From positions 6,852 through 70,851 of the forward strand of contig CALVUN010000010.1 of NCBI GenBank assembly GCA_944363595.1: 64,000 nt of DNA, written 5' to 3'. This DNA comes from an uncultured Bacilli bacterium (GTDB taxonomy: Bacteria; Bacillota_I; Bacilli_A; RF39; UBA660). Shown here one piece after another: positions 8,783-10,021 of this stretch (the stretch's first letter is position 1; every line of letters begins with the position of its first letter). A program made the position numbers and the translations under genes. Under the pieces are notes generated by a model. That model was not told where the DNA came from, did not search any database, and worked only from the letters and a program-made list of their open reading frames with translations.

Positions 8783-8810
8783 TTGCATTTTTTTAAAGAT
8801 ATGATATAAT
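8783..8810 (+). promoter_or_regulatory. sigmaA promoter (TTGCAT-16-TGaTATAAT) driving a micro-ORF unit
   Basis: -35 box, extended -10, and a downstream 60-nt leader containing the near-palindrome TAGATAGATAT/ATCTATCAGATAG. Confidence 0.45.
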
Positions 8811-8879
8811 TAAGTTGTAGATAGATATGCGATAATCTATCAGATAGTTTGAATCTGAAAATGAAAGGAGGGAATGCTT

Positions 8880-8918
8880 ATGTGGAGCTTCATCTTAAGA
8901 ATTTTTGGATTTCACTAG
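8880..8918 (+). CDS. 12-codon micro-ORF (MWSFILRIFGFH) with its own ribosome-binding site, between a promoter and a terminator
   Basis: Ribosome-binding site AAAGGAGGG 7 nt upstream. The ORF is followed directly by terminator 8921-8952. It is not in the ORF track. Confidence 0.35.
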   Translation: MWSFILRIFGFH

Positions 8919-8920
8919 AA

Positions 8921-8952
8921 ATATAAAAGGCAATTAAAACATTGCCTTTTAT
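8921..8952 (+). terminator. rho-independent terminator
   Basis: Hairpin AAAAGGCAATtaaaacATTGCCTTTT followed by a T-rich tail. Confidence 0.6.
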
Positions 8953-9039
8953 ATTTCCTTGTCAATCAAATGTAAATAATAAAATTATAGTTGTTTTTTT
9001 TTCCTCTTTTTGTTAAAATAAAACTAAGAGGTGTAAAGA

Positions 9040-9747
9040 ATGAATAAACAAAAAGAAAGTAACATCTTTAGCCCATTAAACATAAGCATTTGCGTAATAC
9101 TTTTATACTTTATATGGCCATATTTCATGAATGCCCTTGTCAATATGGCTAATATCAAGGGGACACTTGCCCTTTATATGCAGTTTATCGCCGATTTCTT
9201 CCTTTTAGGACTAATAATATTTATTTACTATCAAAGTATCAAAGAAGATTTTCGCAAATTAAAAAATAATATCAAAAAGTATGCTCTAAAAAGTCTAATA
9301 ATTTTTGCTATTGGCCTCGGTATATATACTATAGTAAGCATATTAATAGTTAATATCTTTCCTAATATCGAAAGTGACAATACCAATAGTCTTTTAAACA
9401 TCTTCAATAAAAAACCAATCTTATTATTCATTAGCACCGTCTTTTATTATCCCGTAATAGAAGAATTAGTATTTAAAAAAACATTTAAAGGCATAATAAA
9501 TAACAAATGGCTATTCATTATAATAACCGCAATATTAAATGCATCATTTGAAGTATTATTAAGTTATAATAATCCTATTAATATCATCAATATCATTCCA
9601 AGTTTCATTCTGTATGCAACTTATTCATATATGTATTACGAAAGTGACAATATCGTTGTTCCTATCGCCTATCGTATGCTATATAATTTAATACCAAATA
9701 TTGCAACACTATTGTCAATTAGTAGTATTCTCGTATTTTGGCATTAA
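9040..9747 (+). CDS. CPBP family intramembrane glutamic endopeptidase (CAAX protease / Abi-like, bacteriocin-immunity-type)
   Basis: Multi-pass membrane protein with the EELVFK (EExxxR-like) motif 1. Confidence 0.7.
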   Translation: MNKQKESNIFSPLNISICVILLYFIWPYFMNALVNMANIKGTLALYMQFIADFFLLGLIIFIYYQSIKEDFRKLKNNIKKYALKSLIIFAIGLGIYTIVSILIVNIFPNIESDNTNSLLNIFNKKPILLFISTVFYYPVIEELVFKKTFKGIINNKWLFIIITAILNASFEVLLSYNNPINIINIIPSFILYATYSYMYYESDNIVVPIAYRMLYNLIPNIATLLSISSILVFWH

Positions 9748-9772
9748 TATTAGAGAAAGGAGAACCTATCAT

Positions 9773-10021
9773 ATGAAACAAATTAAGTCTAAATTAAAAT
9801 ACTTAATTCCCATTTTAATTTTAATAATACCAACAACGACAAGAGCTATTTCATATGATAGCTCTATAAACAACTCATCCATTATTAATATTAATGCAAT
9901 TGTCCAAACCGGTGCTGTTATAAATGACGCCAGTAATAACAATTTCAATATCGTTATTATTGGAATGATTATCGTTATTATCATACTTATAGGAGCAGCA
10001 ATGTTTGCTCCTAAAAAATAG
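9773..10021 (+). CDS. small secreted/anchored protein (signal peptide plus C-terminal transmembrane anchor)
   Basis: Ribosome-binding site GAGAAAGGAGAA. N-terminal signal-like MKQIKSKLKYLIPILILIIPTTTRA and C-terminal IVIIGMIIVIIILIGAAMFAPKK. The 9701 start in the ORF track would overlap the CPBP gene. Confidence 0.45.
   Translation: MKQIKSKLKYLIPILILIIPTTTRAISYDSSINNSSIININAIVQTGAVINDASNNNFNIVIIGMIIVIIILIGAAMFAPKK

Follow-up and report, generated by a model that had tools for sequence, protein, structure and literature searches.

Uncultured Bacilli carry, directly 5' of a gene for a membrane protein of the CPBP family, a gene of 9-15 codons whose product is rich in tryptophan (Trp). We describe this micropeptide gene in a stretch of 64,000 nucleotides (nt) from an uncultured Bacilli bacterium of the RF39 lineage (GenBank assembly GCA_944363595.1, contig CALVUN010000010.1, positions 6,852 to 70,851 of the forward strand), hereafter called the window, and in its relatives. 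That the gene is conserved, codes for a peptide and is coupled to this particular CPBP module is very probable. The original prediction, made from the letters of the window alone, had pointed to a 12-codon open reading frame (ORF) behind a strong ribosome-binding site (RBS), which is read directly in the sequence at 8880-8918, but had called it an orphan. That label was wrong, since an equivalent ORF stands in the same place in every relative of the CPBP clade. The adjacency that it had remarked on was meaningful: constant co-occurrence marks the tiny ORF as genuine, under selection and functionally linked to the CPBP protein and to a small anchored protein encoded next to it. The three genes, referred to below as the trio, and the gene upstream of them are the following (lengths in amino acids, aa).

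8880-8918, + strand: micropeptide gene, 12 codons plus TAG (8916-8918), with its ATG at 8880; product MWSFILRIFGFH
9040-9747, + strand: CPBP/Rce1-fold membrane protein of a histidine-less (His-less) clade, 235 aa; EELVFK, with E171 and R212 standing where motif 2 and HxxxN, respectively, would have their His
9773-10021, + strand: 82-aa bitopic protein with a signal peptide, a short ectodomain AIVQTGAVIND...NNFN, a C-terminal transmembrane (TM) helix and a cytoplasmic MFAPKK tail
7904-8749, + strand: upstream module gene, 281 aa, with an N-terminal TM anchor and a LolA/LppX/LprG-like beta half-barrel ectodomain

Recurrence of the micropeptide gene in relatives

An ORF of 9-15 codons occupies the same position and strand in every relative with this CPBP clade, at 25 loci that represent 14 peptide/CPBP lineages and no fewer than 4 genomic neighbourhoods. 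Metagenome contigs whose CPBP proteins are 82%, 59%, 52% and 44-47% identical to that of the window share the gene order fmt, 230-285-aa protein, gap, CPBP, 68-82-aa protein, obg. The gap always contains an RBS-preceded mini-ORF, with the products MWRLILRIFGFH, MSWFWKVFGWR, MSWFWKLFGFH, MSWFWRIFGWK, MWSWFWRIFQPH and MWRWLRWWF; MSWFWRIFGWR is another peptide of the family. Conserved synteny had been proposed at the outset as a check on the unit, and the order micropeptide ORF, CPBP, small protein, obg is indeed kept at 52-59% CPBP identity.

Scanning GTDB, with one genome per species and the CPBP alignment as query, returned 31 loci, all from metagenome-assembled genomes of uncultured Bacilli ('Clostridium sp. 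CAG:762' and similar). The short ORF lies 61-172 nt 5' of the CPBP start in every one of these loci with at least 39% identity and in one at 31%, and further variants came from this set: MWWKIFFGWL, MWRWFFWWM, MAAGKWWRWILWWK, MKKKAPWWGCLIRWW, MWSLIWKILSGRFH, MPWWIKRLFGIC and MWNWFWRAMLKWY. The trio is also found in a gapdh...PASTA neighbourhood, in a rplU-prp-rpmA...obg neighbourhood (peptide MGFFGLVRKLLCWG) and in a fmt...murG-murB neighbourhood (peptide MSWREFVKKVFGGWM). The flanks of the module vary by lineage and are often cell-wall or translation genes, such as murG-murB-POTRA (divIB-like) in L108 (3494-5669), a PASTA-domain protein in L013 (4015-4827) and rplU-prp-rpmA in L107 (191-1102). 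The L107 module sits between rpmA and obg, where Bacillus subtilis has spo0B.

Metagenomes were also scanned with a pattern for the short ORF only. Trp-rich matches came solely from low-GC contigs, all four of those with enough DNA had a CPBP gene downstream, and a new variant, MSWLRRLFGW[VA], was found adjoining CPBP proteins of 30-32% identity. Other hits of the scan were discarded. The recurrent MKPAT[KN]R[FL]FG[WLF]x mini-ORFs (L052, L066, L075, L086 and L102), which have GGAGG before them, are antisense to a conserved motif of ABC-transporter ATPases and are false positives, and for MESTRKKFFGLN and MLELRKLFGC the hits are copies of a single sequence each. The antisense ABC-ATPase motif is a trap for pattern-based searches of this kind. 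Pfam, NCBIfam, Rfam and PADLOC have no entry for the peptides, and searches of databases and literature (peptide strings; CPBP plus small peptide) gave no description of them or of a micropeptide partner of a CPBP protein.

Evidence that the ORF is coding

In DNA with a GC content of 28% the length of a short ORF is by itself hardly informative, and the telling signal is the enrichment in TGG codons. Among 20 distinct peptides Trp makes up 27%, phenylalanine (Phe) 15% and arginine (Arg) 11% of the residues, with no aspartate or glutamate (Glu); a 21st variant has one Glu. The window's long ORFs, by comparison, contain 0.53% Trp. Arg is favoured over lysine. ORFs of 6-20 codons preceded by an RBS number only 10 on both strands of the 64-kb window, and the one with an aromatic-rich product is at this locus.

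In the group of peptides beginning MSWFW the 33-nt ORF is 85% identical, compared with 65% from RBS to ATG, 44% in the leader and 32% in the 3' region. Differences at codon positions 1, 2 and 3 number 26, 28 and 53, so that the third position dominates. The deep lineages share no nucleotide similarity and retain RBS and ATG, a span of 9-15 codons and the amino-acid bias.

An alternative in-frame ATG is present two codons upstream, at 8874 (product MLMWSFILRIFGFH), only 2 nt past GGAGG. Translation likely starts at 8880 instead, because 8874 is too near GGAGG and the MSWFW-group orthologues have a single ATG. An amphipathic helix was considered on the basis of a periodicity of serine, arginine and glycine seen by eye; it was dropped, as the hydrophobic moment is not above that of shuffled peptides for most members.

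The transcription unit

The elements around the micropeptide gene, all 5' of the CPBP gene, are listed below.

8783-8810, + strand: promoter P1 of the micropeptide gene, with -35 TTGCAT (8783-8788), a 16-nt spacer and an extended -10 TGaTATAAT (8802-8810)
8820-8841, + strand: 5'-proximal stem-loop of the leader (GAUAGAU / AUCUAUC), arms 8820-8826 and 8835-8841, 7 bp, from RNA folding
8864-8872, + strand: RBS AAAGGAGGG, 8 nt 5' of the ATG, read from the sequence
8918-8957 (core 8921-8954), + strand: intrinsic terminator hairpin, GGCAAT-TAAAAC-ATTGCC with a U-rich 3' side, from folding and comparison
8959-8976, + strand: conserved box TTGTCAA-N4-6-ATGTAAA between the terminator and P2, recurring in several, not all, lineages
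8991-9019, + strand: promoter P2 of the CPBP operon, with -35 TTGTTT (8991-8996), a T-rich spacer of 17 nt and an extended -10 TGTTAAAAT (9011-9019)

P1 is the strong promoter (TTGCAT-16-TGaTATAAT) noticed at first sight, and it has equivalents in relatives. A simple consensus scanner misses it, its -35 element agreeing at just 3 of 6 positions, but TTGAAA/TTGCAA-17-TGnTATAAT occurs at orthologous positions in 21 relatives. Near-consensus extended -10 promoters were found in most of the 22 relatives examined and are weak in the CAG-762 locus L033. The orthologous units have GGAGG as their RBS, 7-9 nt before the ATG, with GGAGA in two loci and GGGGG in L107.

The leader of the window unit measures 69 nt from the -10 element to the ATG, within the 28-81 nt seen across loci, rather than the 60 nt first given; the near-palindrome reported in it is real and forms the 7-bp stem-loop, which begins about 3 nt past the predicted +1. 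Stem-loops at the predicted +1 occur in about 12 of 22 loci, differ in sequence and are absent where the leader is short. Such a pattern points to an optional element, consistent with a stabiliser of the mRNA 5' end. The palindrome was also considered as an operator, an idea dropped on finding it in only about half of the lineages and with differing sequences. Sequestration of the RBS by the central hairpin of the window fold was likewise set aside as unconserved, the pairing of the RBS ranging from 0 to 1 across lineages.

The terminator immediately 3' of the ORF, another element of the first description, was found again at 8921-8954. It has a 14-bp stem (dG -14.6 kcal/mol), the core GGCAAT/ATTGCC and the trailing tract UUUUAUAUUU. 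A simple scanner with fixed thresholds misses it, and folding and comparative evidence were used instead: the stem shows compensatory changes across 12 aligned units (RNAalifold) and is the sole structure retained. Almost every locus carries such a hairpin, at 0 to 35 nt from the stop codon. The CAG-762 lineage is an exception, with only weak candidates for promoter and terminator and no convincing terminator. The absence of any visible hairpin past 8749 suggests that the one at 8918-8957 may also end the fmt/281-aa operon on its 5' side.

The remaining two elements lie beyond the terminator. The box, in the form TGTCAA-N4-7-(A)TGTAAA, is also present in eight other loci (L017, L022, L027, L029, L030, L011, L031 and L033) and absent from the MSWFW group. 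Its TTGTCA was scored as a -35-like hexamer in the promoter scan, and the box may serve as an operator or as a further (third) promoter. As for P2, TTGnnn-16/17-TGnTAnAAT lies about 20-30 nt 5' of the CPBP RBS in the lineages read by eye. Judged from these signals, the downstream CPBP operon would need no read-through, and the micropeptide gene looks like an autonomous unit.

This arrangement bears on the view that the mini-ORF encodes a cis-acting leader peptide, with translation or ribosome stalling on its Trp and Phe codons deciding between termination at the hairpin and read-through to the CPBP-small protein(-obg) operon. The ORF does lie always immediately upstream of CPBP, on the same strand and 61-172 nt from its start; the window terminator begins inside the stop codon, so that its 5' arm would be covered by a ribosome terminating there; and enrichment in TGG, the rarest codon, is typical of attenuator leaders, for which rtpLP and trpL are rare-codon-rich precedents. 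The original prediction had offered three options for the peptide, namely a pheromone, an unmodified leaderless peptide and a regulatory leader. The second fits best, and the third is weakly supported in view of the conserved extended -10 promoter predicted between terminator and CPBP, the stop-to-terminator spacing of 0-35 nt and the CAG-762 lineage with its lack of a convincing terminator. Furthermore, no antiterminator or alternative pairing is conserved (RNAalifold keeps the terminator only, and RBS sequestration varies as described), and the window peptide has one Trp and four Phe, aromatic content rather than any particular codon being kept across lineages. The downstream genes are unrelated to the supply of Trp or Phe. 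RNA polymerase runs ahead of the translating ribosome in Bacillus subtilis, which makes occlusion after 12 codons unlikely. P2, the variable terminator geometry and the want of a conserved alternative structure therefore render attenuation unlikely, and we regard the leader-peptide explanation as a whole as distinctly improbable.

A second alternative would make the transcript a non-coding small RNA (sRNA) of about 140 nt, acting by base-pairing or protein binding, with the ORF incidental. The window transcript is short and strongly structured (folding energy of the whole 149-nt RNA -45.9 kcal/mol, z = -5.9) and has its own promoter and terminator, as an sRNA would. Against this, the ORF is the best-conserved segment while leader and 3' region diverge freely, distant lineages keep RBS, ATG and a composition of Trp, Phe and Arg instead of nucleotides, and the terminator is the only conserved structure. 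Rfam gave nothing beyond spurious hairpin matches: a scan of 8000-11000 against release 15, with E up to 10, returned only sub-threshold miRNA and snoRNA hairpins, the best scoring 29.5 bits where the gathering score is 90. An sRNA with an incidental ORF is hardly credible. A type I toxin-antitoxin system was also rejected, as it needs a membrane-spanning toxin of at least 19 aa together with an antisense RNA, and the micropeptide is too short to span the membrane. A simple promoter scan found no promoter opposite 8817-8957; no search for antisense promoters beyond that scan was made.

The partner proteins

The CPBP protein matches Pfam family PF02517 over residues 125-218 (E = 9.8e-10; 39 bits, cut-off 22.4). 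It had been called a CPBP-family intramembrane protease; the family assignment of the product of 9040-9747 stands, but both catalytic His residues are lost. The motifs, including HxxxN as motif 4, are defined in PMC3578759. In motif 1, EExxxR, the pair E141 and E142 is invariant and the Arg is replaced by lysine (EELVFK), or by serine or Glu in distant members. In motif 2, FxxxH, the aligned residues are N167...E171, with Glu, Gln, Thr, Ala or Asn in place of His throughout the clade. In HxxxN, aligned with R212...N216, Arg or Lys takes the place of the His and the Asn is retained. The invariant residues of the clade are E141, E142, F145, K146, R212 and N216, with no conserved His. Paralogous CPBP proteins from the same homologue search, with canonical EELVFR, FGxxH and HxxHN motifs, served as the comparison set.

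The two kinds of CPBP separate cleanly with respect to the micropeptide gene. In 31 species-level genomes the short ORF accompanies 19 of 19 His-less CPBPs, L031 being scored as His-less by motif 2 in this count, and none of the 12 canonical paralogues (Fisher p about 1e-7 before L031 is so scored, smaller afterwards, and uncorrected for shared ancestry). The clade is sizeable: the His-less proteins among the best 150 matches of a profile search against 1.84 billion representatives form at least 22 clusters at 50% identity.

A structural model of the protein has an Rce1-type polytopic helical fold, matched best by the structures of Rce1 and of SpdC (PDB 6u0o), a scaffold without catalytic role; a sequence search of PDB with the CPBP profile gave no match. 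The positive-inside rule, applied to the helix boundaries of the AlphaFold2 (AF2) model, predicts a location close to the cytoplasmic face for the conserved polar residues E141, E142, K146, R212 and N216.

The 82-aa protein has the signal peptide and C-terminal anchor ascribed to it before, and in addition a PKK tail. Across loci the pattern is ...AIIQSGAV.ND...NNFN, a TM helix and MFAPKK, with the N-terminus outside; some lineages have shorter forms of 44-65 aa with no signal peptide. A homologue follows CPBP in every locus that bears the micropeptide ORF, and none stands beside the canonical CPBP paralogues. The upstream protein of 230-285 aa, which is anchored at its N-terminus and has a lipid-binding half-barrel like those of LolA, LppX and LprG, is a usual member of the module. 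In the window and in the relatives at 82% identity it has an acidic, Thr/Glu-rich low-complexity insert (about residues 95-125 of the protein encoded at 7904-8749; AF2 confidence <50), which is absent from distant homologues. NCBIfam offered nothing informative for the module proteins, and PADLOC gave no defence match for the CPBP, 82-aa or 281-aa protein.

Two genes upstream of the module, at 6246-6887, a membrane-anchored glucosaminidase (PF01832) is encoded, a notable neighbour given the likeness of the CPBP model to SpdC, which serves the SagB glucosaminidase as scaffold. The enzyme was rejected as a constant partner of the SagB kind, because it adjoins the module in some lineages only.

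A proposed ligand for a non-proteolytic CPBP protein

The reading that we prefer, with confidence a little short of even, is that the micropeptide is a ligand or regulator of an envelope module centred on the non-proteolytic CPBP protein. The peptide would be made in the cytoplasm as a leaderless product and not exported; its aromatic and cationic character would bring it to the cytoplasmic membrane interface, where it might occupy the former substrate cavity of the CPBP protein as a dedicated ligand, pseudo-substrate or regulator. The CPBP protein itself would, like SpdC for SagB, serve as scaffold for a lipid-linked process of the cell envelope.

Co-variation between the two partners suggests how they might meet. 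The motif-2 His is replaced by Glu in all 12 loci whose peptide ends in His, Arg or Lys, and by Gln, Thr, Ala or Asn in 12 of the 13 with a non-basic peptide end, L031 being the exception. Reduced to clades, the table becomes 4/0 versus 1/9 (hand-computed Fisher p about 0.005), and a neighbour-joining tree shows the Glu type in three places. It was predicted prospectively that the P0039 lineage, of the Gln type, would have a non-basic peptide end; this held, with the peptide MSWREFVKKVFGGWM. The co-variation of the C-terminus with E171 would fit direct contact, and is a lead rather than proof.

A more far-reaching version is possible, though we would extend less trust to it. Here the peptide, the pseudo-protease, the tail-anchored protein and the LolA-like lipid binder would together control a lipid-linked envelope step in uncultured RF39-like gut Bacilli. 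The CPBP protein would have turned into a peptide receptor or scaffold, with the Glu that replaces the catalytic His pairing with the basic C-terminal residue of the peptide, and the micropeptide genes would be among the shortest autonomous, deeply conserved protein-coding genes that bacteria are known to have.

Several points weigh against a cytoplasmic ligand. The co-variation comprises few independent events, with one exception (L031), and the cytoplasmic cavity stands or falls with the positive-inside rule over AF2 helices. The separate promoters mean that peptide and CPBP protein need not be co-expressed. A constant same-strand position 5' of CPBP would also be expected of a cis-acting leader. 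Lastly, a Trp/Arg composition like that of membrane-active antimicrobial peptides leaves room for an extracellular or toxic role.

Such a role would be that of a secreted or membrane-attacking leaderless peptide with formylmethionine and Trp/Arg character (an unmodified mini-bacteriocin, a surfactant like the phenol-soluble modulins, or a pheromone), for which the CPBP module would provide immunity, export or maturation. CPBP/Abi proteins are reported as bacteriocin immunity factors (Kjos et al. 2010, as cited in PMC3578759), and MroQ-type CPBPs help pheromone maturation. The C-termini that contain two adjacent Trp recall XIP pheromones, and promoter, RBS and a stable-looking mRNA suggest high output; going by these signals, the gene is apparently highly expressed. 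The composition itself (27% Trp, 11% Arg, almost no acidic residues) matches that of Trp/Arg-rich antimicrobial peptides (review PMC6017362). Other features speak against such a role. The locus is single-copy and, in contrast to accessory bacteriocin loci, keeps its place between housekeeping genes even where CPBP identity has fallen to about 30%, and its CPBP protein has lost the His of motifs reported to be necessary for Abi-type immunity. The peptide has no signal sequence, and no conserved exporter was seen in the module, nor any exporter, Rgg/ComR-type regulator or histidine kinase in the neighbourhoods read. A length of 9-15 residues is also below that of leaderless bacteriocins or SHP/ComS precursors, none of which, to our knowledge, is as short. 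The two-peptide bacteriocin locus nearby, moreover, is lineage-specific. Taken together, secretion seems rather unlikely.

Independence from the neighbouring bacteriocin locus

11570-14614: bacteriocin-type locus with a C39-peptidase ABC transporter (11570-13651), a 146-aa accessory protein, peptides (14152-14489) and a 46-aa hydrophobic ORF (14474-14614)

The two overlapping 56-aa peptides of this locus (14152-14489) have double-glycine-like leaders (MEQITNLQMQKIEGG... and MIILKNDEMTKVTGG...), and the 46-aa ORF at 14474-14614 could encode their immunity protein. The original prediction had suggested that the micropeptide and CPBP genes may belong to one self-protection circuit with this locus. 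The comparison does not support this. The C39-ABC transporter is found in the window and in the relatives at 82% identity only, obg being followed by ftsK or another gene at 52-59% identity, where the locus is absent; the trio occurs in three other neighbourhoods; and the CPBP protein does not have the His of immunity-type members. A CPBP gene expressed independently and with no link to the bacteriocin had been named as the outcome that would speak against the circuit, and in silico the gene has its own predicted promoter and no bacteriocin link. Nor does the CPBP gene co-vary with a cognate bacteriocin operon, as would be expected of an Abi-type immunity gene. Because the bacteriocin locus is confined to the window and its relatives at 82% identity, the module is, on this comparison of gene order, older than that locus and independent of it.

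Further along, on the - strand at 15276-15443, a Gly/Tyr/Cys-rich protein of 55 aa (MYYYGGYNGGYSTCGCGGGYPSYGGGFGYGYGYG...) with a C-terminal hydrophobic helix is encoded. It has no NCBIfam match and recalls the YjcZ-like Gly/Tyr-rich small proteins.

Significance and comparison with known systems

ORFs of 9-15 codons are never reported by gene callers, and the family is therefore invisible in the annotations of abundant uncultured gut Bacilli. Should the peptide be the ligand of the His-less CPBP protein, it would offer a genetic and structural route to the ligands of non-proteolytic CPBP/Abi proteins, a question raised since SpdC, Abx1, ComM and similar proteins were found to work in the absence of protease activity, and it would push down the lower size limit of trans-acting bacterial peptides. 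If it is exported instead, gut Bacilli would make unmodified formyl peptides of the Trp/Arg antimicrobial type, with relevance to microbe-microbe and microbe-host interactions. Either way, the idea of the CPBP gene as part of the neighbouring bacteriocin locus is corrected.

Among CPBP-fold proteins a close parallel is the Staphylococcus aureus protein SpdC (LyrA; PDB 6u0o), for which a non-proteolytic role as scaffold for the SagB glucosaminidase is reported (bioRxiv 10.1101/2020.05.21.109470); a catalysis-independent function is also described for Abx1 (PMC3578759). SpdC shares the fold of the clade described here but has no described micropeptide partner, and its putative catalytic residues were mutated with no phenotype rather than lost. 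Here the partners are a peptide of 9-15 aa and a small bitopic protein, and the linkage to a glucosaminidase is inconsistent. The Abi immunity proteins PlnI, PlnLR and SkkI (Kjos et al. 2010) likewise belong to PF02517 and pair a membrane protein gene with a short peptide gene. They carry EExxxR, FxxxH and HxxxN, whereas the present clade has neither His, and they are encoded in accessory bacteriocin operons alongside transporters and peptides with double-glycine leaders, whereas the module has a fixed core locus and a leaderless peptide.

The pairs MgrB-PhoQ, SafA-PhoQ, MzrA-EnvZ and AcrZ-AcrB, in which a very small hydrophobic peptide with a gene of its own binds a polytopic membrane protein and modulates it, provide the working analogy; PMC3578759 lists these examples among regulators of histidine kinases. 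Those proteins have 30-65 aa and span the membrane, whereas the peptides described here, at 9-15 aa, are too short to do so, are rich in Trp and Arg, and bind only putatively.

Regulatory leaders such as rtpLP, trpL, TnaC and ErmCL are also mini-ORFs (10-24 codons) with a strong RBS and rare codons, 5' of a gene and sometimes followed by a terminator. In contrast to them, the unit described here is followed by a separate downstream promoter, has no alternative RNA structures and a variable terminator position, and conserves composition, not codons.

As to secreted peptides, ComS/XIP and SHP of streptococci are short and aromatic, and several variants here have Trp-Trp near the C-terminus (MWRWLRWWF, ...ILWWK). 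Their precursors, however, have 17-35 aa, are exported and cleaved, and are encoded beside ComR/Rgg, whereas 9-15 codons give at most the length of a mature pheromone, and no gene of the Rgg/ComR family was seen in the module neighbourhoods. Leaderless bacteriocins and phenol-soluble modulins have 20-55 aa and come with an ABC exporter or immunity genes; here there are 9-15 aa and no conserved transporter. Indolicidin, tritrpticin, lactoferricin fragments and synthetic Arg/Trp peptides are closest in composition, having 6-15 residues dominated by Trp and Arg and no acidic residues (review PMC6017362). They are animal host-defence or synthetic peptides, secreted or processed, whereas those described here are predicted primary bacterial translation products with no export signal. 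Small-protein modulators of membrane proteins and non-catalytic CPBP proteins were known already; what is new is the pairing of Trp-rich peptides of 9-15 aa with a His-less CPBP protein.

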